Source: Naegleria gruberi
Lineage: Eukaryota
Length of the DNA stretch: 64,000 nucleotides
Strand: one strand, 5' to 3'
Assembly: GCA_000004985.1 (NCBI GenBank)
Contig: GG738848.1
The notes under the pieces are model-generated. The model saw only the letters and a program-made list of their open reading frames with translations, was not told the DNA's origin and ran no database searches. The translations under genes were made by a program, and so were the position numbers. Within the stretch, counting starts at the first letter, position 1. Each line of letters starts with the position of its first letter. This document shows, one piece after another, positions 4,372 to 50,102 of this stretch.

Positions 4372-6231
4372 TTATTCTCTCAAAATATCGACTGTGGCAT
4401 AAATTTCGTCGGTAATTCTATCATAATTGTCTTGAAGTTTCTTCCATTCTTCACCTTCCTTCTTCTTCAATTGAGAAAGTGTCTTAATAATGTCGAACTT
4501 TTCAGCTTCTCTCTTTTCAATCTTATTAATGTGGACAATTGACTTGGCATTCAAGTTTGTTAATTCAGTAACAATATCCTTCTTGATCATTTCGCTCAAT
4601 TCTTGTCTCTTCTTATCAATAGATTCGATAGTTGATTGATTATTGGAGGCAACAGCTTGTTCGACTTCTTGATACCAGTTATCTCTTTCAATGAATTTTT
4701 CAACATAGAGTTCAGTCAATTCATGTGCAGTAGTTTCACGTTCATTTTCAAGTTCCTCATCAGACTTGGAAATTGAAAGATCCATTCTGACATAAACCAT
4801 GACGAACAAGCAGAAACCAAAAAGAGCAGAAATGACCAACAATGGTTCAAAGTAAACAGCAGAAGCTGGAAAAGTGTAGGAAAGGAGGAAGTTTTCATTG
4901 TGTTCTGGGACAACATTCTTCTTATTAATAACAGAAACAGTTCTACCAGAAACATCGAGATAGGTCTTCAAATTTTCCTTTGATTCAGAGTCAATTGGGA
5001 ATGAAGTTTTGAATTCAACATCATCAGCACCTTCTGGAACAACAACTCTAAGAGTGAGATCCTCAACTGGAGCATCGAATGGAACTGAGAATTTGTATCT
5101 CAATTTGTGCTTTTCTGGATTATTCATGGCAACAGTAAGGTAATCATTGATTGGTAAATTGTATCCAATATAGAAACGAATCTTCCAACCTCCAAAAAGT
5201 GGGAATCTTGGATGGAAATCAACTTCAAGATTCTTTCCAGAAACACGAATATCCGAAGATGAAATGTTACCAATTCTATCTCTAAAGTAAATATCATTAG
5301 CCAAGAGTGGCAAAGTAGCAGTAATCTTTCTGAAAGAAGCTGGTGAAGTTTGTCCAGGATTCTTAGAGTATTCAAATCTAGAGAATGGACCAACTAACTT
5401 GGCACCAGTGTGCTTAATTTCGTAGTGTTCTTCGACAGCCAAATTACCCCAGTGAGAAATTTCAACAGTTCTTTCAACTGAGGAAACAACAAAACATGGT
5501 CTATCGTTAACATAGTGCAATCTAACACCAGCAGTAGTGAATGGAACAACATCACGGAAAGGACCATATTGAATACCATTTCCTTTGTTTTCAACAGGCT
5601 TAACAGTGTTAGTGTATGATTCAACAGCTGATGTTCCGAGTTTGACAAGGGTAATTTGTGATTTAACCTTGTATGGTGTGAAGAAGTAGGCATTATCCTC
5701 ATAAACAACCTTTTGGTGTTCATCTTGTTTGATTTCCTTTGGGAATGGAGAAATAACATTGGTGAGGGCAATATTGACAACCAAATCAACCTTTTGCTTT
5801 GGAGACAATGGTGAAGCGAGTTCAATTTCATAGAACAAAGCATCCCTATAATTATGATCAAAATATTAATCATGATGACATTATTAAAAATCCCAAGCTA
5901 ATAAAACTAATACTTACTTGTTCAATTCATCATTGAATTTATGCTTTGGAACATTCAATGTTGTAGATTGTTGGCGAGCAGAAACATAGGCAACATTATT
6001 TAAAGCGAGTTCCTTTGGGAAAGCCAAATAGAAGAATTTAGCATCGGATGATCCAACATTTTGAATAGTTAATTTCACTTCATGTCTAACAACAACATTT
6101 TGTGTGGTATCAATACTTCTATCTATCGACAAGATTTCAATATCCGAATAAACGTTGGATTTAGCTTGAGTAAAAACAGCCAAAAGGCAAACAATTAAAA
6201 ACACAGATAGCGTGGTTTTAGTGATCATCAT
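4372..6231 (-). CDS. RPN1: Ribophorin I / OST1 subunit of oligosaccharyltransferase, two exons (6231..~5921 and ~5843..4372)
   Basis: Exon 1 (ORF 5914..6231) encodes a signal peptide (MMITKTTLSVFLIVCLLAVFTQA) and the ribophorin I N-terminus. The GTAAGT...TTATAG intron at about 5844..5920 joins in frame (..NDELNK|DALFYEIELAS..) to ORF 4372..5838. That ORF has the ribophorin I body, a C-terminal TM segment (LLVISALFGFCLFVMVYV) and a charged cytosolic tail. Confidence 0.85.
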
Positions 6232-9401: not shown

Positions 9402-12022
9402 TTATTGATCTTCTAAGGAGATATCACACTTTGATTGGCACAATTCAATCATGTTTGCTGCCAATTTATCATTACGTCCATTAAGCAATTGGTGATCGAA
9501 ATATTGCTGGAAGAGCAGTAGTGCATTCGAATAGTCAGATTCAAAGTACATGAGACATGCATTATTGTAGGTTTTCCACTTTTGTTTCTTTTCTTGTTCT
9601 TCCAATTCGTACATCCATTCTAAAAGAGAGATAATCAATTTTCAAATAATTCAATTGAACTACTTACCATCTGCATTTCCTTGAGTGGAATCTCCAATTT
9701 CAAAGATCTTTTCCATTTTGGAATGGTCCTCTATTCCATTAATGTGAAGGCTTTCTGAATATTCCACAACTGATGAGTAATTTTGATCTTCAATCATTTT
9801 CACATATCCAACAAATCTTGTGTGATATTGAGATTCAATTGCTTTTTGAATGGAATGGGAAGAAACTAATTTCAAATCGAATTCTCTTGCCCTTCTCAAC
9901 ATGGTTTCCAAATTACTTTTGGCATTTGAAATAAGCGTGTAATTCTTACTATCATTTGTTCCAACATTACCACAAACACATTCTTGAAGACAGATGGCAG
10001 CTCTAATTTCCAAATCATCAATCAAATGCTTGTCAATTTTCTTTGCAAATCTGTTATTAGAAGAAAGCCATTTCTTCTCCTTAATTGACGAAAGTTTTTC
10101 CAGAATCATTCTTGTTGCTACCACTGCCTTTTCCTGATGTTTACTCTGGGCAGAAGTTGTATTGAATGAAATTGTAATGGAATCATTCTCAAATGAACCA
10201 AGTAATCCTCCATGTGTTCTGCATATAGTTGTGATTTGATCGAAGAAATCAGTCAACATATGAATTGTATCATGTGGAGAATGAATTGAGTTCAATACTT
10301 TTGAAAAATTATCTATCATGATGTTACTAATGGAAACTTTCTTCTTTTCTAAGAATAGAGAGAACATATCAGCCTTGATACTTGAATATTTGGAACCTTT
10401 TGAAGAATTCTCTGTATGATTAGTTCTAAATGATTCCTTCACTTGAGAATTGCTTTTGAATGAGCTCGAAATTGATTGTAACTCATTTGGCTTAGTTCCA
10501 TTCTCTTCAGAGGAGCCCATACCCTTCTGATCCAATTGAGCAAGCAAATGAGGTGGAAGGAAAGCTCTATACATTTTGATAGTGTTGGTCATTTCTAAAA
10601 AGTGTTTTTGTAAAGTTCTAACTTCTGAAAAAGTACTTGGTTGAACATTGACATTTTCCAAGTCCATGTGAGAAACTGCTTCGAATTGTTCGATGAGATT
10701 GTTGAATGGTTTTACAATTTTTATGGAAACGAGAACAGAGAGTGAGATAGAGACTGAAACAATAATTAAGGCGCCCAAAAGTGACGAAACAATTCCAATA
10801 ATTACTGATCCCATATAGTTCCACTTTGGAATACTCAGAACAAACATCCAATCAATGTTGGTATTTAGACACAATCTATATATCGAAACATAATCAGTCA
10901 TGTGGTCAAATGTTTTAGGAGTGTTGCAGGCAATGTTCGATTTAATATCTCCTTTAGCAAAATCAACAATTACATTGTAGATACTATTGATTCTTGTGTC
11001 CTCAATATTGGAAGCCGTCTTTCTGGCAACGTTTCCATTATCATCTAGAACGGCAGTTTTGGTATCCCTGTTATCAACTTTATCAATGGTCAACTTGGTG
11101 TTCAATAAAAAAAATACTTACTAGCAACTAGATAATTTTGGGCAACTTCAAATATAAAACTCTTGGACCCATCGATGATTTTCGTCTTATTAATCAAGAA
11201 ATCAGATGCACTAGCCACTGTAATATCAAATCCTTGAAAATAATCAAATTTAATGGTATCCTGAGCTGATCTAGCAGTGAAAGAGAAACAATAAACTAAT
11301 GAATAGAAGGTATCCAAATTTTCAGTGGTAACATCCACAAATCCTCTTGTAAAGGTCAGTTTTTCAGGATGTTCATTACAAGTCTCTATAATATAGTCAA
11401 CATCTAATGGGTCTTGAATTATATCTGGAACATTTCCTCTCTGACATGTTTCATACTTTTCTAAATCTGGATCACATTTGTAAAATATCTGATGGTCTTG
11501 TGTACAATTGAGAATTGAAACATCTGTTCCTGAATTGTAAATTCCAAGATTAGTTCCAGAATTCTTTCCAACATAAATTGTTACAACAAGGTCAGAGTTT
11601 GCTCTCTGTTCTGATAAATAGGTCTGATAGACAATCTTTTCTATCTGATCATAGTTTTCAAAATCCAACAGGAATCTAATTTGAGCTCGCATGGTGTCAG
11701 CCCCATGAGTAACATCAAGCAAAATCTTCTTGACCGAATTGACTATTTCATTAAACTCTGAATCTCTTTCAGTTAAACTCAAATTGAAATTAGAAGGAAG
11801 TAAAGAGCTCATCCAAATAGCCGATAGAAAAAGAACACTAATCAATACTATTACTGAAATTAGAATAATAATACAGAACTTGATTGAAGCGAATGGTTTT
11901 CTTGATTCATCGAAATTTGTTTTTTCTAAAACTTTTTCAGAGTGAGAAGCTGAAGAAAAAACAGCACTTTCTTCATCAACATCATTGGGATGAATTGCAT
12001 TTGAGGACTTGTTGACCACCAT
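9402..12022 (-). CDS. Receptor-type class III adenylate/guanylate cyclase. Three exons (12022..11122, 11077..9668, 9619..9402).
   Basis: ORF 11102..12022 has an N-terminal TM (CIIILISVIVLISVLFLSAIW) and then an extracellular domain. A 44-nt intron (GTAAGT...ATAAAG, 11078..11121) restores the frame into ORF 9660..11105. That ORF has a second TM (VIIGIVSSLLGALIIVSVSISLSVLV) and a nucleotidyl-cyclase catalytic-like region (..AAICLQECVCGNVGTNDSKNYTLISNAKSNLETMLRRA..). A 48-nt intron (GTAAGT...TTTTAG, 9620..9667) joins the ORF 9402..9638 exon, which encodes a TPR-like tail. Confidence 0.65.
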
Positions 12023-13037: not shown

Positions 13038-13710
13038 GTTATTGTATTTTAATTTGTTTGTTCAATTAAAACTCGATATCTTTTGGTTTTATAGGAATTC
13101 TAAACTTGGAACTCAATAAATGCGACAGTAATACACTCAACGTTGGTCAACTCTTCCAAATTGAAATGGAAGAAGAATTAAGGATTGCGGATTTAGAGTT
13201 CATAAAACAAGTTCTTTTAGAAGTTTGTGTTTTTCTTTTCAGAGAAGTAATTTGGTCATTGAAAATATGGCCTAGTAATGAAATTTCTCAAACAGTTGAA
13301 GCTGAATCTTTTTATGTATAAATTGAAATTGGTAATTTATATACAATCTGCATTTTATTCTAATTGGCTGGGTTCAATAGTTTCGAATAAGATTACGATT
13401 GTAATGATCATGATGATTGGAGATTGAAAGTCGTTTCGACCAAGAAGATCAATAGATCTGATCTTGACAACTGTAATTCTTGGAAACAAATTGTAATAAT
13501 ACATGTTAATATTATTATAATAAATATTGTAAAATGTTTGAGGAATAGTTTTATCAGAAATCAACCGAATCACATGCTGATGTGTAATATTTTTCTGCAA
13601 CGTTACAATTTCCATTGGATAATTTGCCCAATGAATTCATCCAAATCCGACAATACCTGAAGAAATTGATTAACACTTCAAACGTCAACTGTTCAAAAAA
13701 AAAATCAACA

Positions 13711-16700
13711 ATGTTTGGTTCGCAAGTAGGGGGCGTAAATGACTTGGCAGGGGAGTATCCAACACTTGATGTGAGCACTCCAAGATCCTCGGGAGGTTCT
13801 TTCGCCACAACATCTTCTTCATCATCCAATGTTTCGAATATTGTTGATATTTTCAATTCGAAAGAAAAATTAATAGTTATTGTTGATTCCATTGACAATT
13901 ATAAAAATTCAGAAATCTACGGATCATCAACAGTTGCTTCTTCTAATAATTCAACAAATGATCAAGCAGGTGTTTATGTTCGAGTCAATTTTGACAATCA
14001 AGTTAGAATAACAGGTGTTAAAACATTTTACAGTAATACAAATCCTTGGAATATTAAATTAGGTAAAAGAGTTATTATTCCGTATGGAATTAGTGCTTTA
14101 CAAAGTGGAAAGTTATCAATTGAAGTATTCGAAACACAGACAGGTGAAGCCAAAGTACAAATAGATAAAAGATTGGGAAAGACTGAACCAATCAAAATTA
14201 ATGTAAGTTTTTGTTTTTTTGAATGAATTCATATTTATTGATGCTTTGACTAATTTGTAAAATAATAATAAATTATTATTAAAATATTTTACAAAATTAA
14301 AATTGGAAAATATTAGGTATTCGATATGAATCATCCAGTTGAATTTTCACTCAATTTAAGTGATGATGTTCAAGTACAATTTAGATTTATGAGAGCTCCA
14401 CTTGCCAATAAGGGACATTATAAAGCAATGGAAAGAAGTATCTATTCACTTCTTTTGAAAATGAAGCAATATGGTGAAAATGCACTTTCTAGAATTAATA
14501 ATCCAGAAGAAGATGATGATGATTACGATCCAGAGAAGGAAGAGGAAGAAATCTCAACAAGACAACCAAAAATACTCAAATCTGGATTCATGTTAAAAAG
14601 AGGACAGGGTAATTTTGCCAAGTGGGCTCGTCGTTATATTGAATTGGATGATACACTCTTATTGAAATATTATGCATCTGATTCAGAGGAAGATAGGAAA
14701 GAACCTCTAGGTATTGTTGTTATTGACAGTGATGCAATGGTTTATGTGCCACGAGATGAAGCCATGGAAAAGGAATTACAAAAACAAAAGAATATTGAAA
14801 AATCAAAGGAATTTGTCTATTACAATCAGGCTCTATTGGATGAAGATGATGCACAGAACAGTTTTGAGAGTATTGACGATTTGGAAGCTGACGAACAACA
14901 AACCATCAACATTATTAGAAGAAAACGTAGAGAATTGGAAAGAAGAGGTCCAATGCTTGATTTGGATGAATTATATCCTTATTATTTACTTGCTTCTAGT
15001 GAAAGTGAAAGAGATAGAACACTCATCATTGATGAAATCATTGAATCAATTGAAAAGGAAGAGTCTGGTGAATCAGTCACTATTAAATCTCACACAAAGG
15101 AAGAGAGAAAATTGGAAAAATTCTTAAATTTGGTAAATCCAAAAGGTTTCAAGTTTTCCCTTCAATGTCAAACTAGTTTCAGTAACGGAAAGGAACATAA
15201 TTTGAGAGAGCATCAATTCATTACTGATTCTGAAGAAGCTAGAAAGGAATGGATAACTGCTATCTGTGAACACATCTTACTCGAAGAAAAGAGAACTGAT
15301 TTGAGAGATCCTGAAGAAGAAATTCACTCCAAGATTTTCCCATATCTGGACTTTTTCGAATTATTAACAACTGAAACACCACTTCAAGAAGTTGTCAGAT
15401 GTTTCAATTCCTTCCAACTCAATGTTTCTGAAAAGATGGTTGCTCCTCTGTTAACACTCTTTGATGCCTCTGATTCACCAAAGACAAGTGTGGAATTTGT
15501 CAAAAGTGCCATCTCTGTCGAAGTTGACAGTGCAGAATCTGCTGGTACCCTTTTCAGAAGAAACAGTTTATCATCCAAATTGGTAACCTTATTCTTTAAA
15601 GTTTTTGGTTTGCGTTATCTCACCAAAACTATTAAACCATTCCTCATGAAACTCATCAAGGAAAATAAGAGTTATGAAATTGATGACGAAAAGGTTGCAT
15701 CAGATATTGCTGATAAGAATGCTGAATTATTGAAGGGAATTTGTGATGAAGTGTTAAATTTGATTATCAATTCAAAGTATGAATGTCCACCTCAAATCAG
15801 AGAAGTCCTAGCTCATACTTTTGAAGAATCTGAGCAAAAGTATGCAGCAAGTGGTGAATTGTGTGTTGGTGGTTTGCTGTTTTTGAGATTCTTCTGTCCT
15901 GCCCTTGTTACTCCACAACTTTTTGGTTTAATTAAGGATTCACCACCAAAGAATGTTCAACGTACATTAACATTATTGACAAAGATTCTCCAAAATATTG
16001 CCAATCAAATTAGAACTAGTGAAAGTAAGAAGGAAAAATTCATGAAGAGAGTTGAGGCCTATACTGGTGCTCAAATTGACAGTGTGAAGGATTTCTTGAG
16101 AAGTATGTCAGAAGAACCAAAGAAATATGTCAGAGAAACTAAGGAAATAGTTCCTGATCTCATCAAATTACAAAGTTTGGAATTTATTGCTCACCACTTT
16201 GGTGAAGCATTTACCAAAAAGTATTACAATTTCGAAAATGATATCATTACTGAGGCCACATTCCACAAGTTTGCCAATCGTTTGGCACTCATCTCTAAAG
16301 CAGGTCTCGATAAGAAAATCAAACAACTTTCACAAGATGATCCAAATGCCCTGGTGAGACCTTCAACTAAATCCACTTCATCCAATACTACTGGCGGTAG
16401 TGCTGGGAGTAGCAGGCCCAATCTCAGTATTTCAACTCAAAATCCATCGCCTTCTAAGACGATAAACTCACCCACTACCAAATCTCACTCTCCACACACT
16501 GTTTCCTCACCAAAACCAAAATGTGCCTCTCCTTCCACTTCTCCACTCACAACAACTGATAAACAACAACCAACCACTCCTCGAGGAATTACTTATAAGA
16601 ATCGTTCACCATCTGTCTCTGTAAACGATGTAGGACGTCTCACAAAGAATGTGAAAAAGATTGGTGGAACTGAATGGGACAGAAAAAGAGAAAGGAGAGC

Positions 16701-16893
16701 TGGAATCATAGTCAACCCAACCACATCAACTGCATCTTCATCAACTGATACAACTGCTACTACTAGTGCAACAACTTCCAATACTTCCGACTCCACAACA
16801 ACCTCAACAACAGATTCTTCTGCATTATCAAAGAGAGGTTCCATGAGAATTTTCAAACGTGTTGGAAACTCAAATTCCTCTCTCTATGATTAA
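13711..16893 (+). CDS. C2-PH-RasGAP domain protein. Two exons (13711..14202, 14317..16893).
   Basis: Exon 1 (ORF 13615..14226) has a C2-like beta-sandwich (VYVRVNFDNQVRITGVKTF...KLSIEVFETQT). The 114-nt intron GTAAGT...TATTAG (14203..14316) joins in frame to ORF 14326..16893. That ORF has a PH domain (GFMLKRGQGNFAKWARRYIELDD) and a RasGAP domain with the FLR signature (GGLLFLRFFCPALVTPQLFGL). The tail is S/T/P-rich (about 16363..16890). Confidence 0.75.
16363..16890 (+). repeat. Low-complexity Ser/Thr/Pro-rich coding tract (C-terminal tail of the RasGAP protein)
   Basis: Representative stretches: STKSTSSNTTGGSAGSSRPNLSISTQNPSPSKTINSPTTKSHSPHTVSSPKPK ... TSTASSSTDTTATTSATTSNTSDSTTTSTTDSS. Confidence 0.6.
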
Positions 16894-16988
16894 ATTTGGA
16901 AAACTCATTCCACAAAATAAATAATGTTAAATAAGAATCCATCCAATAATACCATTAGTTGAAACATTGTTTGCTACCTTAAACATTT

Positions 16989-18583
16989 ATGGAACTTGAA
17001 CTTATAAAAAAAATGGCGCAACAAGTTGTTCACTTGATAACGAAAGATAATGTCGCGCACACGCTTGAGGATGTAATCGTGATGAGTAGAATGTGGGAAA
17101 AGCTAAAGGATTCGGATGGTGAGGAAATTGTTAGTATTCACCTTCCGAATATTAATCACTTGACTTTACAAAAAGTTATTGAATATTGTGAGTATTATTC
17201 TCTACCTGAAAGAGTTGAAAGAAAGTTTCCAATGATGGGGACAAGGAAGGAAGAAATCAGTGATTGGGACAATCAGGTTAGTAATTGGAAAGTAAATTTT
17301 AATGAAATAATGTGAGATAGTTTTTAGAATTGGATTCGGCTCTATTGATTGATATTGCATTATCTGCCAACTATTTGGATATTACAAAGTTAGTGAACTC
17401 TTCATGCTTTAAGATTGCTTCATTAATTGAGAATGAAAACAGTAGTATACTGCAGGGTGAGTAGGATGTTGACATTTTGTCTCTTAATCAACATTTAGAA
17501 TTACTGCAATGTACTAGTCTAGATTTCTATTATGACGAAGATGGTAATCATGTTTCTGATTTTATCATTGATTCAATTAGAGATAGGTTTTTTATAATCA
17601 TTCGTGTATTGGGCATTGTGCTATTTAGTTTTAATTCGTTTACAATAATTCTGGACAAGTTAAGGTTTTGGGAAAATAGAGATTTCTGTATGGAGGCAGT
17701 CAATAATGATGGAACATTACTTCGTTATGTTTCCAGCTATCTTAAGAATGATAGAGAAATTGTTTCCACAGCTGTCAATAATACTGCTTATGCACTTACA
17801 TATGCACCAACACAGTTTAAAGAGGACAAGGAAATGATTTTGCAAGCTGTGAAACAAGGTGGAGATATTTTACATTTGGTACCTACAGAGTTACGGAACG
17901 ATAGAGAAATAGTTGAGCAAGCAGTAAAGAAAAATGGAATGGCCATAAAGAATGTATCAGAAGAGTTGAGGAAAGATAGGAATACTGTTTTAGAGGCTGT
18001 CAGGCAAAGTGGTTGGGCGTTTCAAGAGGTTCCAGAAGAATTCAAGAAGGACAGAGAGATTGTTTTTGAGGCAGTTAAGCAAACACCACAAATGCTCGAA
18101 TTTGCTGATACTGGACTGGTTAATGATAGAGAGTTCATCTTACAGATTATCAAGAACAATGAAAATATCTTGGAATATGTTTCAGAATCATTTAGGAATG
18201 ATAGAGAGTTCATCCTTCAAGCTGTGAAAGTTAGAGGTTTTGTGCTTTCTCATATTCCAGAGGAATTGAAGAAAGACAGAGAAATTACATTGGAAGCAGT
18301 TAAAGAAAATGGCCTTGCTATTCAAGCAGCACACGAAGACTTTACAAATGATAGAGAAATTGTTTTGGAAGCCATCAAACAAGATGCCAAAGCTTGGAAA
18401 CAATTATTAGAAGAATGTAGAGACAGTGCCGAAATGCAAATAGAATTATTTGGTTTGGCTCTCTACTCCGCTTCACAAGAATTGAGAAATGATCCTGAAA
18501 TTTCCCAATTTGCATCCCAAGAATATGGAGAAGAAATACTAGAACTAGGCCAGAGTTATCTCAATCCTCCCCCAATGGAATAA
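16989..18583 (+). CDS. Truncated Skp1-like (BTB/POZ fold) domain fused to about 8 tandem DUF4116-like repeats of about 38 aa. Three exons (16989..17276, 17321..17456, 17499..18583).
   Basis: Exon 1 is Skp1-like (VVHLITKDNVAHTLEDVIVMSRMWEKL...LQKVIEYCEYY). The intron 17277..17320 (GTTAGT..GATAG) gives ..DWDNQ|FLELDSALLIDIALSANYLDITKLVNSSCFKIASLI.., which matches the Skp1 dimerisation helix. The intron 17457..17498 (GTGAGT..ATTTAG) joins in phase 1 to ORF 17477..18583. That ORF has repeats such as NDREIVLEAVKQNGxAL and EELKKDREI (17663..18422). Confidence 0.55.
17663..18422 (+). repeat. Coding tandem repeat array: about 8 copies of a ~38-aa (114-nt) DUF4116-like module
   Basis: Examples of the repeated units: NDREIVSTAVNNTAYAL / EDKEMILQAVKQGGDIL / NDREIVEQAVKKNGMAI / KDRNTVLEAVRQSGWAF / KDREIVFEAVKQTPQML / NDREFILQIIKNNENIL / NDREFILQAVKVRGFVL / KDREITLEAVKENGLAI / NDREIVLEAIKQDAKAW. 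Confidence 0.6.
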
Positions 18584-34278: not shown

Positions 34279-37200
34279 ATGAGTAAACAACTTTTTCGGA
34301 TTTGTAGCAACAATTCTTCATCAGCAGTTGCAACGAGGAATGGTAGTGTGCAGAAGAAAGGCTTGTTGATGACGGTTCGGGATCATGATGTCGGTAATAG
34401 TCAGAGAGGAAACTATCATACCTCTTTTAAAAATCAAGCAAAAATTGGATTATTTGGAGATATTCACTTTCAAGATGTTGGTTTGGAGAGAGTGGTTGAG
34501 ACTGGAGAGTGGATTACAAAAGAGTTTGAAAATCAAAAGGTGGATTATATTGTGTGTATGGGTGATGTGTTAAATACTCGAGAGACTGTTAGTATTAAAG
34601 CACAGAGTTCAGCTCTCCAATTTTTTGATAAATTGTCTCAAAAGATACCGAAAGAAATTCACATTATTTGTGGTAATCATGACTTGAATTTAAAGTATGA
34701 TACAAAAGTGAGCTCCTTGGATGCACTTGGTATGTCAAGTGTATCATCTAATAGAATTTATCTTCATAAGCATATTACAGAAACAGAGTTTGATGGAAAG
34801 AAAGTAGTATTAATTCCATATTATGAGGATACTTCAATAATCAGGGATTGGGTTGTTAAAAAAATCACAAAAGAACCACTTGATAATTCGATTGGGTTCT
34901 GCCATATGGCGATTAATGGAGCAATTCAACGATATCAAAAAGATAGTAAGGAAAATGTTTATTCTAGGAGTTATGATGACCATTCTGGAAAGAATATTTT
35001 GGTTGAAAAGAAAAAAGGAGACAAGAAAAAGGATACAGGAAGCGATATGGATTTGCCTGAGGAAGGATCCAAAGTACCAAAATTTTTAACTCAATTTCAA
35101 AGAGTGTTTTCAGGTCACTTTCACCATCATCACTTTTGTGATAAGAAGGTAGCATACGTTGGTGCACCTATGCAACATCACTTTGGAGATTCAGGTGATG
35201 CATCTAGAGGAGTAGTAATTTATGACACTGAAACTGATGAAATACAATTCGTTCAAAATCCTGAGTGGGATAAATTCAGAATACTACGATTGAGTAAGGA
35301 GGAAGACCTTGGAGAAATCACAGAATATAAGGGAAAGCACGTATCTGTTATTTATGAAAGTTTCGATTTAGTTCCCCAAGTTATACAAGAAAAGTTATTG
35401 AAGGCTGGAGCAAGTTCTGTGAAAAAACACTCTGTGGTAGTGAGAAAGGTTCAATCAGCATTATCTAGTGATGATCGTCAAAAGGATGACGAGAAGGCGT
35501 TCACTGGTCAAATGTTTGAGGATTTCGTTGTAAAATATGTAAAACAGTATGCTAATCTATCATCTATGGGATATGATTCTCAATTCAGTGATAATATAAT
35601 CAAAATTGGAAAGGAAATTATTTCAGAATCAACAAAGGAAGATAACAATAATCTAAATGTTGGTGATACGTTCAAAGCTAATATCAAGAGTATCACAATC
35701 CAAAATTTCTTGGGTGTTCAAGGATGTATTACCTTTGAAATCAAGAATATGCAAAATGGAATTTGGTTTTTGGAGGGATCAAATGGTGCTGGTAAAAGTA
35801 CAATTTTAGAGGCACTAACATGGTGTCTTTTTGATAAGTTTTTAAGATCTGATATGAAGGCAGATTTTGTTGTCAATGACCAAGTCAAAAAGGATTGTTT
35901 GGTCAGAGTAGATTTTGAATCAGGTTATTCTATTGAAAGATTCAGAAAGTATACAAAGACTGGAGAAAAGGAATTACCAGATGAATTAATTAGCAAATCT
36001 GCTCCAGAAAGAAAAGGAACAGGTGTTAGAGTTTTTAATCAAGGAACATATCTCAGCGATTTTGAAAAGGGTTCAACAAGAGATTCCCAGACTTCTATTG
36101 AGTCTCTTACCGGAATTAATTTTGATATGTTCACCAAAGCTATTGTTGTGGGAGACAATGCTGTAAATTTCTTAACCTCTGATGCAAAACAAAGAAGAGA
36201 TTTAATTGAAGATTTATTGGGGTTGTATCTTTTTGATAGCTATTTATCTAAGGCAAGGGAAAGAAAAAAGAGTCTTATTGAAAAAGTATATTCCATGAAA
36301 TCAGAACAGGAAAAAACAGAGTCTACCATTGTTTCCTTGGAAGAATCTCTGAAAAAGTGGAAAGAGCAATTATCACAAATTGATTCTGCTATTTCTGAAA
36401 AAGAAAACGATTATGCCGAATCAGTAGAATTGTGTAATGAATTAGTGGCTAAAAAGAAATCAGCAGAGAATAATTGGAAACAATTCCAGAAACTCAATAT
36501 TGCCAGGCAAAATTACAACAATCTCTTGAAGAAAAATGATCAATTAGAAGTCAGAATTAATACCCTCGAAAAGAATCTAGAAAAATTAGCAGAGGAAAAG
36601 GGGTCATTCTTTACTGACGATATCACAGATGTTAAACAATTGGAGAGATATTTTGAGGAGAATATTAATGAAATCAGATCTAATTTGAAGAGATTTTCAC
36701 AAACTTTGATGGAGAGCAATGTAGAATTAAATGTTTCTAAAGAGAAATTAGAAAAGTTGATGGACCTTTCTGAAAACAATGAATGCCCATATTGTGAGCA
36801 ACCTATCAAGGAACACACTCACGAGAAAATTCTTGAAGAAAAAAGAACCATTGAAGCTAGGGTTGAAGAGTTGACACAAAATATTGAGCATATTAATTTT
36901 ACTATTGCAGATTTGCAAGAGGAAATGGATGATTTGGAACGCTCTAAAAAATCCACAATGCAATCTCTTACCAAACTTGAAAATACAATTATCCTAAACC
37001 AGAAGGAGAAGGCAAATCTTGAAAATGATCTGGTCAATATTAGATCATCTATTGATTCTTCAGAAAAGGAATTGCAAAGTTTATCTAATGAATCTGAGGA
37101 CGTTGAGGCTACTCTTAATAGCTTGGTATCCCAAGAAAGAAAGGCAATGCAAAAAAAGTACGAATTGGATGCCAACATTAAATTCTCAAAGAAGAGAAAA

Positions 37201-37803
37201 TTAGAACTTGAACGAGACATAAAATCTAGTGAAGATTCTTTGGAAAATCTCAAGATAGATTATGAAACTATTTCTACAAGCTACAAGGATTATGAGCAAG
37301 ATTTTTCTGCTCTTGAATTTTGGGAAAAGGCTTTTGATAAAAAGTCAAAGAAATCAACCAAAGATGATTTTGAAACAATGAGATCATTCTTATTGAACAA
37401 ATCTATTGAAGATCTCAATAATATTTTGGATGAATATTCTAAACTTGTTGGAAGTGATATGTTAAAGATTACATTTGACTCTGATTTAATGATCAAAGAG
37501 GATTATGGTAAACGTTCTTCTGGACAACGTAAAAGAAATCACTTGATGATTCATTTTGCATTGTTCGAATTGGTTAGGCAGAGATCTAGATTCAGAAGCA
37601 ATTTCCTAATGTTGGATGAAGTATTTGATGCCTTGGATGTAAATGGGCAAGCACAAGTACAGCAAGTCATTGAGATGATTTCCACCAAGATTGATAAAGT
37701 ATTTGTAATTTCTCACTCAACCTCAAACATGGAACTGAGAAAAAAGGCAATTGTTGCCACCATGTCAGATGAGGGATCAAAGTACAAACTAACCTATAGA
37801 TAA
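34279..37803 (+). CDS. Single-chain fusion of an SbcD/Mre11-type calcineurin-like phosphoesterase (N-terminal about 330 aa) and a complete SbcC/Rad50-type SMC-like ATPase with a CxxC zinc hook. Intronless, 1174 aa.
   Basis: Phosphoesterase motifs are in order: GDIHF (motif I), CMGDVLN (II), ICGNHD (III), and VFSGHFHHHH (V, GHxH). Next comes an ABC/Rad50 head: Walker A (LEGSNGAGKSTILEAL), about 450 aa of coiled coil with a central CPYCEQPI hook, a signature-like KRSSGQRKR motif, Walker B (FLMLDEVFDALD) and an H-loop (VFVISHS). The N-terminal 40 aa are basic and S-rich (MSKQLFRICSNNSSSAVATRNGSVQKKGLLMTVR), which is presequence-like. Confidence 0.75.
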   Translation: MSKQLFRICSNNSSSAVATRNGSVQKKGLLMTVRDHDVGNSQRGNYHTSFKNQAKIGLFGDIHFQDVGLERVVETGEWITKEFENQKVDYIVCMGDVLNTRETVSIKAQSSALQFFDKLSQKIPKEIHIICGNHDLNLKYDTKVSSLDALGMSSVSSNRIYLHKHITETEFDGKKVVLIPYYEDTSIIRDWVVKKITKEPLDNSIGFCHMAINGAIQRYQKDSKENVYSRSYDDHSGKNILVEKKKGDKKKDTGSDMDLPEEGSKVPKFLTQFQRVFSGHFHHHHFCDKKVAYVGAPMQHHFGDSGDASRGVVIYDTETDEIQFVQNPEWDKFRILRLSKEEDLGEITEYKGKHVSVIYESFDLVPQVIQEKLLKAGASSVKKHSVVVRKVQSALSSDDRQKDDEKAFTGQMFEDFVVKYVKQYANLSSMGYDSQFSDNIIKIGKEIISESTKEDNNNLNVGDTFKANIKSITIQNFLGVQGCITFEIKNMQNGIWFLEGSNGAGKSTILEALTWCLFDKFLRSDMKADFVVNDQVKKDCLVRVDFESGYSIERFRKYTKTGEKELPDELISKSAPERKGTGVRVFNQGTYLSDFEKGSTRDSQTSIESLTGINFDMFTKAIVVGDNAVNFLTSDAKQRRDLIEDLLGLYLFDSYLSKARERKKSLIEKVYSMKSEQEKTESTIVSLEESLKKWKEQLSQIDSAISEKENDYAESVELCNELVAKKKSAENNWKQFQKLNIARQNYNNLLKKNDQLEVRINTLEKNLEKLAEEKGSFFTDDITDVKQLERYFEENINEIRSNLKRFSQTLMESNVELNVSKEKLEKLMDLSENNECPYCEQPIKEHTHEKILEEKRTIEARVEELTQNIEHINFTIADLQEEMDDLERSKKSTMQSLTKLENTIILNQKEKANLENDLVNIRSSIDSSEKELQSLSNESEDVEATLNSLVSQERKAMQKKYELDANIKFSKKRKLELERDIKSSEDSLENLKIDYETISTSYKDYEQDFSALEFWEKAFDKKSKKSTKDDFETMRSFLLNKSIEDLNNILDEYSKLVGSDMLKITFDSDLMIKEDYGKRSSGQRKRNHLMIHFALFELVRQRSRFRSNFLMLDEVFDALDVNGQAQVQQVIEMISTKIDKVFVISHSTSNMELRKKAIVATMSDEGSKYKLTYR

Positions 37804-41832: not shown

Positions 41833-44069
41833 TTGGAATGTTCTTTTTTCTTTCCCTGACTGAAATAATTATATAAAAATCTTAAAAATCTAAAAGTATA
41901 GACAACTACAGATATTGGAAATACAAATCCAGAAAGGAAAATAAGTGTTCCTAACATGTATCCTGAACCCTTGTCGAATAGCAATTGTACCAAATAATCT
42001 CTTCTGTTGTAATATCTGGATTCAGATCCTTTAAGTTGGGCAATATTTCCATCGGGTTTCATCTCAATAATACCATAATTTCTTCGAATAGAATGTTGCA
42101 AAAGTGGCTCATCTTCATCATTAGTTTTTCTGACCAGATACCAATGATCGAGTGTTGGATTAGCAAAGAAGAAGAAATCTATCAAATTGGCCACAATAAT
42201 CTTGAATTCACTTGAAACTGTAGAAGCTATGGTCATTCCACTTGTTATCAACTGTTCGAAACATTGATCTGGTGATTTACAAATTCTTGACTTTAAAAAT
42301 TGATGAATATCTCCTCCAACAAATACTATTCTATAGGTACCGTATGTATTAGATAAATAATCAAGGAAATTAATGACATCTTGTTTGAAATCTGGGTGAG
42401 TGGTATATCTTTCCTTCTCTGCAGCATAAACAACACTAGAAAAAGTATCTCCAAAGAAAAGGATTGGTATTGAAGTGAAAATAAGTGCCCTCTTAATCTT
42501 GATCGATCTATTTTCATTATTCATGCATGTACTCAAGAATGATTGAAGCTCTTTAAGTTGCTTACTTCCAAATAATGGATGAGTAGAGTCTCCATTGAAC
42601 GTTCTTTCAAATCTCAGATCCATCAGTGCTATGCAAGCGATACCAATGTCTCTGAAATAATAAATAGGTTCATTACTCACCAATTCTTGTCTAGAACCTG
42701 CAACAAGAGAATCCTTGATCAATTGGTATTGATATTCAAAAAATACCTCCTTTCCTGCCAATATCATTCTCTTAAATTGTTGATTTGAGTCTTGTTCCAT
42801 CATCCATCTATCCAAGTTATTGATAATATCATGATCGTCTGGAATCATCAAGTGTGAACCGTGTCTTAAAATCCTCTGTACAGCATTATATTTCCATGTA
42901 TTTCTATAAACATATCTGAAAGCATTCACTAAATCATCAAAAGTGGCATCAGGATTAATCTTTTTTACATATTCATGATAAACCCAATCAGCATACTATT
43001 AAAGTTCAATATTTTCAAATTAGAATCCACTACTTACAACCTGATCTCCCAAATGGATAACATAATCCCATAAATTATTTTGGTGTTCAATGTAAAACTC
43101 ATCAAAGGTAGTGATATCTTCATCCTCAAAAAGCCTGTCACAACTCATAGCTGCAATCCTAACATTTGATGTCAGTGAAAATGGGTCTGTAGAAATTGTA
43201 CAAAAAGTAGCATAATCCTCATCTTCATTCACGCTCTCTAATCTAATAAATTCAACAGTATAACAAGTGTTTGGAATTAATGAAGTAAATTGTAAAACTT
43301 TAGGTCCTTCTCTATCTTTCACTTCCACAACTTGTCCATGAATATCCTTTCCATTAACAACTGTTCTCGTATCAGTTCTTCTCAAAACAATCTTATATTG
43401 AGATGTATGCTGTTTAGTCCATTCAAGTCTTTCTTGTTCTGTCATCATTAAATAAATAAATTCAAAATCATCCTTATTCTGCTTGTACATTTTAATATTC
43501 GATTTAGAAGCAAAAATAGTTTCAATTCTCTTCTTTACATCCACAAATAAACTAATATCTTGTGGATTCTGTAAATCTCTGATCACATATGGAGGTGCCC
43601 ATTCATACAATATCCTAGCAGAGGTATCTGTAACTTCACCAACAACAATCATGAGTGGATCTTTTTGTTGTGATGGTTTATGATGAACAACTTTTGAAAA
43701 CATTATACTATTTGCATAAGGTTGACTAGATACAAAATTAATCAAAGTACAAGCAAATAATACAATTACAATATATGCCATCCACCTCCTCTTATATACA
43801 TTCAATAAATTACTACTATTATTTACAACTTGGTCTCCTCCTCCTTCCATCAACAACAACATTTCGTTCCGAGACTTTAATTCATTCACCATCATTATCC
43901 TCCTCTCTCCTATACAATTCTTCTCTGATAAATTCAAAGTCTTGTCATGAAGAGCATCAACACTATCATGATTGCAATCAAATAAAAACATTCGAAGCCT
44001 CCTCATCGTCACTCCTTCATTATCTTGCATTTTTTTAGGTGTTCGGAAGAATTTCGTGCCCAATGACAA
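41829..44069 (-). CDS. PhoD-like metallophosphatase with an N-terminal membrane anchor. Two exons (44069..43038, 42995..41829).
   Basis: ORF 43020..44069 has a TM (WMAYIVIVLFACTLINFVSS) and ends ..HLGDQV. A 42-nt intron (GTAAGT..TTTAATAG, 42996..43037) joins in frame to ..YADWVYHEYVKK..RHGSHLMIPDDHDIINN.. and then VFVGGDIHQF. This reconstitutes the PhoD signature motifs GDQ(V/I)YAD, DDHD/E and GDIH. Its stop codon overlaps the stop of the cupin gene on the other strand. Confidence 0.7.
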
Positions 44070-49022: not shown

Positions 49023-50102
49023 TTAGAGTAACATGAATGAAATCAATGAGAGGAGGGCAACAATTAATTGAAGGGCAGCAACTGAGGCATTGGATTTCTT
49101 ACTGCTTGCTGCAGTAGGAGTTGAGGATTTTCTGACACCAACGGCAACATTACTAGTTGCACCAACATCACCCACATAACTGAGCTTGGTGGCATCTAAC
49201 TTGACTTGATAGAGAGCATTAATAATAGGAGCAAGGTAGGCATGACAGAAATCAGCATTTAAGGTCTTGGTATATGGATCAGCACCCAAAGAAAAAGAGG
49301 TAATGTTGGCATTTGGGAAATTGCTTTTAGCAAGAGTTTCCATTGAAGTACCAGATTGAACACACAAATTGACTGTCTTTTGATTAAGATCACTCAAAGA
49401 TGAAATAGCAGAGCCAAGATTGCCTTTGACAACACCATTACCATCCTTAATATATGGACAAGTAAAATCAATCAAATCAGTTCTTGGAACAGTTTGACCT
49501 GAAGGGAGAGTTACTGTACCTTCAACTGACATACCACTCAAAATAAAATCAAATCTGAGATTACCCATATCAGTAATGAGATTACCAAAAACAGTGGTAT
49601 CATTGGTAAAGTAAGCTTGGAAAGGAACACCTGCATAATTCATACCAATTCTATAAGCAATAGAGGCAGCAATATCTTTAAAATTCAATTAGAACACATT
49701 AATACAGCACTATTTAAACTTACCAGCTTCGAAACCAGTGCATTTACCATAATTTGAACCTACAGCAGTGTAATTAAATCTTTTTGGAACATTCGCAACA
49801 CTGTTAGCACCAAAGAGAATATATTTACGTGCGAGAATACTGGCCATAGTAGAATCAGCTTGAAGGTCGGAAGCAGCTGGCCAAGTAGTATAATTTGTAC
49901 ATTTACTTGTTGGGGCATGGAGAATATTGTCACCAAAGTAAGATTGATGGATAGCATTGAACCCAATACTAGTTGTTGTATCAGCAAGGAAATCATAAAC
50001 AGCCTTGTTCAATGTTTTGGCAGCTGTTGACTGGGCACTGACAAGTGTAGCAGTGGTGGCAACTACACAACACAAAACGACAAGGAAAAATAAATTCTTC
50101 AT
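49023..50102 (-). CDS. Secreted, probably GPI-anchored protein with a bacterial periplasmic solute-binding (SBP_bac_3 / iGluR ligand-binding-like) domain. Two exons (50102..49724, 49674..49023).
   Basis: Exon 1 has a signal peptide (MKNLFFLVVLCCVVATTATLVSAQS). A 49-nt intron (GTAAGT..TTTTAAAG, 49675..49723) joins ..GFEAG|DIAASIAYRIGMNYAGVPF...RFDFILSGMSVEGTV..RTDLIDFTCPYIKDG..LSDLNQKTVNLCVQSGTS. This matches the SBP family 3 lobe pattern (G.E.D.A..IA...G.....fD.i..gms.T..R...vdFt.PY...g..........dL.gk.v.vq.GT). The C-terminus has an S/T-rich stalk and a hydrophobic tail (AALQLIVALLSLISFMLL), consistent with a GPI signal. Confidence 0.6.

Follow-up and report, generated by a model that had tools for sequence, protein, structure and literature searches.

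A predicted three-exon gene joining a Skp1-like domain to a DUF4116 repeat array in Naegleria gruberi

Introduction

The small, stand-alone protein Elongin C binds BC-box helices and has a Skp1-like POZ fold without helices H7-H8 of Skp1. In plants, type-II SKP1-like proteins keep the complete set of F-box-binding helices, and their C-terminal extension is not known to be an array of DUF4116 repeats. The analysis presented here concerns a locus of Naegleria gruberi NEG-M that lies in a 64,000-nucleotide stretch of contig GG738848.1 (assembly GCA_000004985.1); this whole stretch is referred to as the window, and positions are counted from its first letter. The best explanation of the locus, and a rather likely one judging from the sequence, is a three-exon gene encoding the POZ fold and helices H5-H6 of Skp1, a linker, and approx. 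12 DUF4116 units, whose product may act as an adaptor-receptor or as a decoy. Both protein families are already known; what would be new is their unusual, lineage-specific pairing, in which a Skp1 paralogue is joined to a DUF4116 array.

Gene structure

The locus is predicted to be a real protein-coding gene of three exons, and its gene model is fairly secure. The predicted coding sequence on the plus strand (17013-17276, 17321-17456, and 17499-18583) specifies a product of 494 amino acids. The features of the locus are as follows:

16989-17012, plus strand: upstream in-frame ATG and eight codons (MELELIKK), probably 5' untranslated region (UTR)
17013-17276, plus strand: exon 1, start codon and Skp1 POZ fold (β1-3, H1-H4, to ...DWDNQ), predicted from Pfam, phmmer, and AlphaFold2
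17277-17320, plus strand: intron 1, 44 nucleotides (nt), GTTAGT...ATAG, phase 0; read-through reaches a stop
17321-17456, plus strand: exon 2, Skp1 helices H5-H6 (FLELDSALLIDIALSANYLDITKLVNSSCFKIASLIENENSSILQ), aligned to SKP1 92-136 with the AANYLDI motif included
17457-17498, plus strand: intron 2, 42 nt, GTGAGT...TTTAG, phase 1; read-through leads to a stop
17499-17671, plus strand: exon 3, linker with an acidic LDFYYDEDG segment followed by a hydrophobic helix; no in-frame ATG
17672-18421, plus strand: exon 3, ten 25-residue DUF4116 units in perfect register (Pfam PF13475)
18422-18583, plus strand: exon 3, degenerate C-terminal DUF4116-like units and the stop codon TAA (18581-18583)

Candidate introns were sought by scanning the window for GTNAG(T/A)...AG pairs that link long open frames. 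The two introns reconstructed in a preliminary description of this DNA, at 17277-17320 (cag/GTTAGTAA...GAGATAG/ttt) and 17457-17498 (agg/GTGAGTAG...CATTTAG/aat), have the sequence described there. Both show the features of the short class of N. gruberi introns, namely GT-AG ends, a length of approx. 42-72 nt, a GTNAGT donor, AT richness, and interruption of the reading frame. Five introns of neighbouring genes served as controls: 42 nt (42996-43037), 44 nt (11078-11121), 48 nt (9620-9667), 48 nt (49676-49723), and 72 nt (5846-5917). Their splicing exactly reproduces the annotated products of four genes (XP_002682110.1, XP_002682103.1, XP_002682113.1, and XP_002682101.1). Because these verified introns span 42-72 nt, introns 1 and 2 fall into the locally annotated size class; in particular, intron 2 has the same length (42 nt) as the verified intron at 42996-43037. 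Moreover, the donors GTTAGTA (intron 1) and GTGAGTA (intron 2) differ little from the GTAAGT found in the verified local introns.

Upon removal of both introns, the three open segments join in frame to give one continuous coding sequence (1509 nt when counted from the ATG at 16989), and the phase-1 junction reported earlier is borne out by the split codon G/AA, which encodes Glu. Without splicing, the frame of exon 1 ends at a stop in intron 1, and exon 2 reads ...LQGE before a stop two codons into intron 2; retention of intron 2 would thus place a stop before the repeats, as had been anticipated. A third intron at 17587-17628 (42 nt, in frame), which would excise the hydrophobic helix of the linker, was considered and rejected as unlikely, its donor being GTTTTT. 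A further intron in the linker is unlikely because no GTNAGT donor occurs anywhere in it and the verified local introns all carry GTAAGT.

It is quite probable that exons 1-3 belong to one gene encoding a single predicted fusion protein, and this would also be the most parsimonious reading. The first methionine of exon 3 is Met206 (502-residue numbering; ATG 17690), and 75 open codons lie upstream of it, as compared with only 3-26 upstream of eight annotation-verified starts in the window. When the linker was shuffled, the frame stayed open in only 0.18% of trials (p=0.002); the coding score of its first part is +0.32. The 25-residue DUF4116 register runs from residue 200, and Met206 lies five residues downstream of the beginning of the Pfam match; a start at Met206 would therefore truncate the first unit. 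Finally, the stop located upstream in the frame of exon 3 sits within the donor motif of intron 2, and the phases of donor and acceptor agree.

The Skp1-like N-terminal domain

The 133 N-terminal residues form a divergent Skp1 POZ fold followed by helices H5-H6 and represent a lineage-specific Skp1 paralogue. The Skp1-family POZ fold that had been recognised in exons 1-2 was recovered by sequence and structure searches alike. A phmmer search of PDB sequences yielded 33 Skp1 chains, the best of which, human SKP1, aligns over its residues 25-141 with residues 30-146 of the query (E=1.2e-13), and a profile built from 88 Skp1 homologues gave 117 bits. The Pfam family Skp1_POZ (PF03931) scored 22.7 bits with the full protein and 24.8 bits with the N-terminal part alone, the cut-off being 21.9. 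An AlphaFold2 model of the 222 N-terminal residues, computed with the 88 Skp1 homologues, has a predicted local distance difference test (pLDDT) score of 75 overall and of approx. 77-95 across most of residues 1-130. Its topology is that of a β-β-α-β-α POZ fold followed by H5 and H6, with a pLDDT of 88-93 in exon 2, and all 50 PDB matches listed by Foldseek for this model are Skp1 (probability 1.00 each).

The characteristic motifs of Skp1 are kept, namely hLPNi, WDNQFLELD (WDxxFL), and LSANYLDITKL...C..IASLI, which contains ANYLDI and the conserved Cys. The H5-H6 core (WDxxFL...AANYLDI...C..vA) is present and aligns to SKP1 92-128, and the nearly invariant Skp1 columns F89, N105, L112, L113, and C117 (alignment numbering) are retained.

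Homology to Skp1 can be followed up to profile position 139 of 193, at the end of exon 2, and extension into exon 3 adds 0 bits. An alignment that continues past the exon 2/3 junction (NDFTPEEE against LDFYYDED) can be drawn; it extends without any increase in score and was not used as evidence. The Pfam family PF01466, which covers H6-H8 and includes the 'dimerisation' and F-box-binding helices, gave no match at E<=1 or E<=10. Since PF01466 is absent, the F-box-binding tail H7-H8 appears to have been replaced, as was proposed earlier, and its place is taken by other sequence and then by a DUF4116 solenoid. The dimerisation helix that had also been assigned to exons 1-2 is present in its first part (H5-H6); its continuation, as represented by PF01466, was not detected. 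Likewise, Pfam finds in the fusion protein no PF00651 (BTB) domain, which, together with the Cul3-binding 3-box, marks the BTB/Cul3 adaptors.

The linker and the DUF4116 array

Between the Skp1-like part and the repeats lies a linker of 58 residues (134-191 in the 494-residue numbering) with a strongly hydrophobic helix, which the preliminary description had passed over. The hydrophobic segment comprises 22 residues (FFIIIRVLGIVLFSFNSFTIIL; approx. 17585-17650, plus strand), and its Kyte-Doolittle maximum over 19 residues, 2.14, falls within the range of transmembrane segments. AlphaFold2 places a long helix over this segment (pLDDT 60-74). No F-box-like motif was found in the linker by Pfam. 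The segment, which separates a normally cytosolic adaptor domain from the repeat array, may anchor the protein in a membrane, be buried as a packing helix, or act as an F-box-groove mimic.

The repeat array matches Pfam DUF4116 (PF13475) with 317 bits (E=7.5e-97) in six stretches of the 49-residue (2 x 25) model. Residues 192-441 consist of ten clean 25-residue units in perfect register ((N/K)DRE-iv-eAVk-nG...), and two degenerate units follow; the earlier count of about eight repeats thus has to be revised to ten clean units and a degenerate tail. A single-sequence AlphaFold2 model of the repeat part is all-helical (pLDDT approx. 70-93). A fold search with the repeat region returned only generic helical repeats of the designed or karyopherin type (best E=5e-3, template-modelling score <0.25). 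DUF4116 has been predicted to form an alpha-solenoid, and its function is unknown (PMC8078820); the all-helical repeat part, which has no significant solved relative, fits this prediction.

Proteins of Naegleria and from metagenomes contain DUF4116 arrays joined to BTB, RING (PF12678/PF13639), protein kinase, ankyrin, EF-hand, and DnaJ domains. A C-terminal motif, RME(Q/H)CYFG(A/V)YL, is common to two of these DUF4116 proteins, P0029 (N. fowleri FDP41_006030) and P0024.

A second strain

The sole near relative obtained in an exhaustive HMMER search is P0121, a 104-amino-acid, prokaryote-style gene call that starts at MAQQ. It derives from an ENA metagenome contig of 1835 nt (ERZ929261, k127_583045; here L001), which aligns to window positions 16226-18052 with 97.8% identity. 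Although assembled independently, L001 has the same layout: the 3' end of the RasGAP gene, the Skp1-like exons, and the DUF4116 open reading frame (ORF).

In L001, a 1-nt insertion at 16998 puts the ATG at 16989 out of frame with the remainder of the gene. Because this insertion lies between the ATG codons at 16989 and 17013, the conserved start is the latter (MAQQ...), which is probably the true start of translation. The gene start given in the preliminary description was therefore 24 nt too far upstream, and the product has 494 rather than 502 residues. Exon 1 of L001 contains an in-frame insertion of 12 nt, and intron 1 carries a 5-nt deletion that shortens it to 39 nt. Both donors and both acceptors are unchanged, and there is one substitution within intron 2. 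Thus, the exon indel is a triplet one, and non-triplet indels are confined to intron 1 and the sequence preceding the start. None of the changes creates a stop codon, and the linker is open despite four substitutions.

ENA fragments of a similar kind occur in the 90% clusters of four other proteins of the window, and contigs such as L001 could be used for population-level comparison along the scaffold.

Annotation and distribution

Nine alternative products of the locus, which included the 502- and 494-residue fusions, a start at Met206, retained-intron stubs, an acceptor at 17522, and the third intron, were looked up by exact match in a collection of 15 billion proteins, and none was present. 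A search with the full-length protein found nothing above 49% identity, its N. gruberi matches being paralogous DUF4116 proteins (30-32%), and no N. gruberi protein spanning exons 1-2 was found in the exhaustive HMMER search. The UniProt accessions of exact matches run along the scaffold as D2V1R6, D2V1R9, D2V1S2, D2V1S6, D2V1T0, D2V1T4, and D2V1T9; in this order, every accession between those of the RasGAP gene and ATE1 (D2V1S2) would be taken. The 368-codon ORF with its 317-bit Pfam match appears to be unmodelled, while the neighbouring genes are all annotated.

That the architecture was unfamiliar, as noted at the outset, agrees with the wider searches. No combination of Skp1 and DUF4116 occurs in the best 150 of 1748 Skp1-like matches (HMMER, 1.84 billion representative proteins), and none of 120 listed DUF4116 proteins has a Skp1 domain. 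The other matches of the N-terminal domain are ordinary Skp1 proteins from across the eukaryotes (identity approx. 25-40%). The long Skp1-like proteins that were checked are tandem-Skp1 proteins or probable gene-model fusions (Skp1 with RRM, a cullin N-terminus with Skp1, helicase C with Skp1), and DUF4116 is present in none of them. Moreover, a scan of viral DNA found no relatives, and a literature search found no paper linking DUF4116 with Skp1. A scan of metagenome DNA gave a lone match, LDFYYDEDG in a bacterial protein, which was dismissed as a chance occurrence. A word-index search with the 203 N-terminal amino acids returned nothing; this is a weak negative, as the search also missed the 96%-identical cluster representative P0121. 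Negatives of the word-index search are unreliable for short or divergent queries.

Proposed function and alternative explanations

Among the surfaces of the N-terminal domain, conservation is highest in the LPN strand and the ANYLDI helix (H5), which we take, from the Cul1-Skp1 structure, to contribute to the cullin interface. Their retention suggests that docking to a cullin or to a Skp1 partner has been kept. As a working hypothesis, the POZ/H5 surface would still dock on the N-terminal domain of a cullin, or on Skp1 or its partners, and the DUF4116 solenoid would be a built-in protein-binding module that confers specificity. F-box binding would be lost or altered with H7-H8 gone, and one chain would unite adaptor and receptor, as BTB proteins do on Cul3. 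If it no longer bound a cullin, the protein would instead be a competitor or a decoy. Comparison with other DUF4116 proteins suggests a promiscuous protein-binding module that is also found in E3-type proteins, and the BTB-DUF4116 and RING-DUF4116 proteins in particular suggest a ubiquitin-ligase context. The most specific version, in which an expressed, functional Skp1-derived adaptor sits on a Naegleria cullin, recruits substrates directly via DUF4116, and bypasses F-box proteins, is doubtful.

Several observations speak against a conserved single-gene adaptor. The coding sequences of NEG-M and L001 differ by 13 substitutions (10 nonsynonymous, 3 synonymous), which gives a ratio of nonsynonymous to synonymous rates (dN/dS) of approx. 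0.83, a number of changes too small to tell neutrality from moderate constraint. Between the same two strains, the 3' end of RasGAP differs by two synonymous substitutions and by one codon in which two bases are replaced (ATA to GTG). Constraint on the fusion gene thus looks weak, or the gene young, and the neighbouring RasGAP gene looks to be under purifying selection. Judging by the exact look-ups, the homology searches, and the run of UniProt accessions, the locus appears to have no gene model in N. gruberi. Searches found no orthologue or paralogue of the same architecture in N. fowleri, N. lovaniensis, Willaertia, or elsewhere. Across the exon 2/3 junction, the Skp1 profile shows no gain (117.1 versus 116.8 bits), and codon usage in the hydrophobic part of the linker resembles that of non-coding sequence (-0.25, as compared with +0.15 to +0.32 for other exonic parts). 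In addition, a predicted transmembrane-like helix is odd for a soluble cullin adaptor.

The alternative that survives best is possible, if on balance unlikely: the fusion would be real and unrelated to cullin-RING ligases, with the POZ domain limited to oligomerisation or docking, or with the hydrophobic helix serving as a membrane anchor. Skp1 and POZ domains homo-oligomerise and have roles outside Skp1-cullin-F-box (SCF) complexes, which is in keeping with this explanation, as are the absence of H7-H8 and the position of the transmembrane-like helix between the two halves of the protein. However, the best-conserved parts are precisely the H5 ANYLDI helix and the LPN strand, presumably the cullin interface, and the proteins that combine BTB or RING with DUF4116 point to a ubiquitin-ligase context.

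It is improbable that the locus is a young chimera or a decaying remnant without conserved function, formed from a Skp1 duplicate beside a member of the large Naegleria DUF4116 family. Such an origin would be in line with the missing gene model in protein collections, the lack of an orthologue in other sequenced heteroloboseans, the highly divergent Skp1 domain, and the high dN/dS between the two strains next to a constrained neighbour, a ratio whose 13 substitutions are, as noted, too few to separate neutrality from moderate constraint. On the other hand, a frame of 494 codons is intact in a genome of 33% G+C content, and also in the second strain over the part covered by its contig; indels in exons preserve the frame, with non-triplet ones confined to the intron and the region upstream of the start, and nearly invariant Skp1 residues are retained.

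Similarly improbable are two separate products, namely a truncated Skp1-like protein of 135 amino acids (...SSILQGE*), arising by retention of intron 2 or a transcript end after exon 2, and a 297-amino-acid DUF4116 protein from Met206 (ATG 17690): the read-through stop two codons into intron 2, the proximity of Met206 to the start of the array, the flat Skp1 profile score, and the poor coding statistics of the second half of the linker are set against the long open frame before Met206 and the shuffling result, the first DUF4116 unit and Pfam match that start upstream of it, a donor (AG/GTGAGT) exactly at the end of exon 2 with a phase-matching TTTAG acceptor 42 nt on, the mere ~225 nt left for a terminator and a promoter, and a linker that is open in L001 despite its substitutions.

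If the single three-exon gene is expressed as predicted, one gene would be added to the N. gruberi catalogue, and its product would be a natural Skp1 domain that has lost the helices for F-box binding and acquired a repeat-type binding module of its own. If the adaptor reading is true as well, an SCF-type ligase would have been rebuilt on the BTB/Cul3 principle, and the widespread DUF4116 would have a first role, that of binding substrates or partners in E3 ligases. These conclusions are limited to a single locus, found in N. gruberi and in one environmental strain closely related to it, and constraint on this locus seems weak.

Genomic setting

The window is AT-rich (approx. 33% G+C) and gene-dense, and its housekeeping genes include those for eRF1, ribophorin I, coatomer epsilon, Clp1, ATE1, and RasGAP. 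The eRF1 ORF is 100% identical to eRF1 of N. gruberi, encoded on a scaffold of 712,659 bp, and seven reconstructed products of the window are identical to NEG-M proteins (XP_002682108.1, XP_002681956.1, XP_002682105.1, XP_002682110.1, XP_002682103.1, XP_002682101.1, and XP_002682113.1), which identifies the window as nuclear DNA of NEG-M. The stop codon of the Skp1-like/DUF4116 gene (18583) and that of the convergent ATE1 gene (XP_002682105.1; 18603) are spaced 19 nt apart, and the 3' UTRs of the two genes therefore overlap or are extremely short.

On the other side, the RasGAP/PH ORF extends from 13615 to 16893 (plus strand), and its 855-amino-acid product is, as such, absent from the protein collection. 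A 114-nt intron candidate at 14203-14316 (GTAAGT...TTAG) would link this ORF to a 203-codon ORF upstream. The official RasGAP model probably has an additional 5' exon joined via this candidate intron. Farther along the window (34279-37803, plus strand), one ORF of 1174 amino acids combines a Metallophos (calcineurin-like phosphoesterase) domain at residues 55-282 with an AAA_23/SMC_N ATPase head at residues 469-711. In sequence, it looks like an Mre11/SbcD-like nuclease joined to a Rad50/SbcC-like ATPase in a single chain.

Comparison with known systems

Canonical Skp1 (PF03931 and PF01466; human SKP1, PDB 1FQV/1LDK/2AST) shares with the predicted fusion protein the POZ fold, helices H5-H6, and the LPN, WDxxFL, and ANYLDI motifs. 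It differs in that the fusion protein, which is only 30-39% identical to any Skp1, has no detectable PF01466/H7-H8 and carries a C-terminal extension of 360 residues. In some protists, the Pro of the Skp1 NDFTPEEE segment is hydroxylated and glycosylated. The corresponding position in the fusion protein reads LDFYYDED, and the Pro is absent. Elongin C is of comparable extent, its POZ fold ending after the equivalents of H5-H6; the sequence searches gave only Skp1, and no Elongin C chain is among the 35 PDB matches. Plant type-II SKP1-like proteins (ASK20; PDB 8IF6) also combine a Skp1 domain with extra C-terminal sequence, and chain 8if6_B is a weak match (E=5e-8).

On the side of the repeats, the DUF4116 proteins of Naegleria, bacteria, and giant viruses are built from the same 25/49-residue repeat, the nearest relatives being 30-45% identical to the fusion protein. 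In their overall plan, the Cul3 adaptors of the BTB-Kelch and BTB-MATH types likewise place an N-terminal POZ fold before a repeat-type binding module in a single chain. The closest analogue of the N. gruberi fusion is N. fowleri FDP41_006030, in which a BTB domain is followed by 11 DUF4116 stretches. The N-terminal regions of these two proteins have no detectable sequence similarity, so the fusions are independent. In contrast to the BTB adaptors (PF00651), the POZ domain of the N. gruberi protein belongs to the Skp1 subfamily, and its resemblance to BTB/Cul3 adaptors would accordingly be one of logic only.

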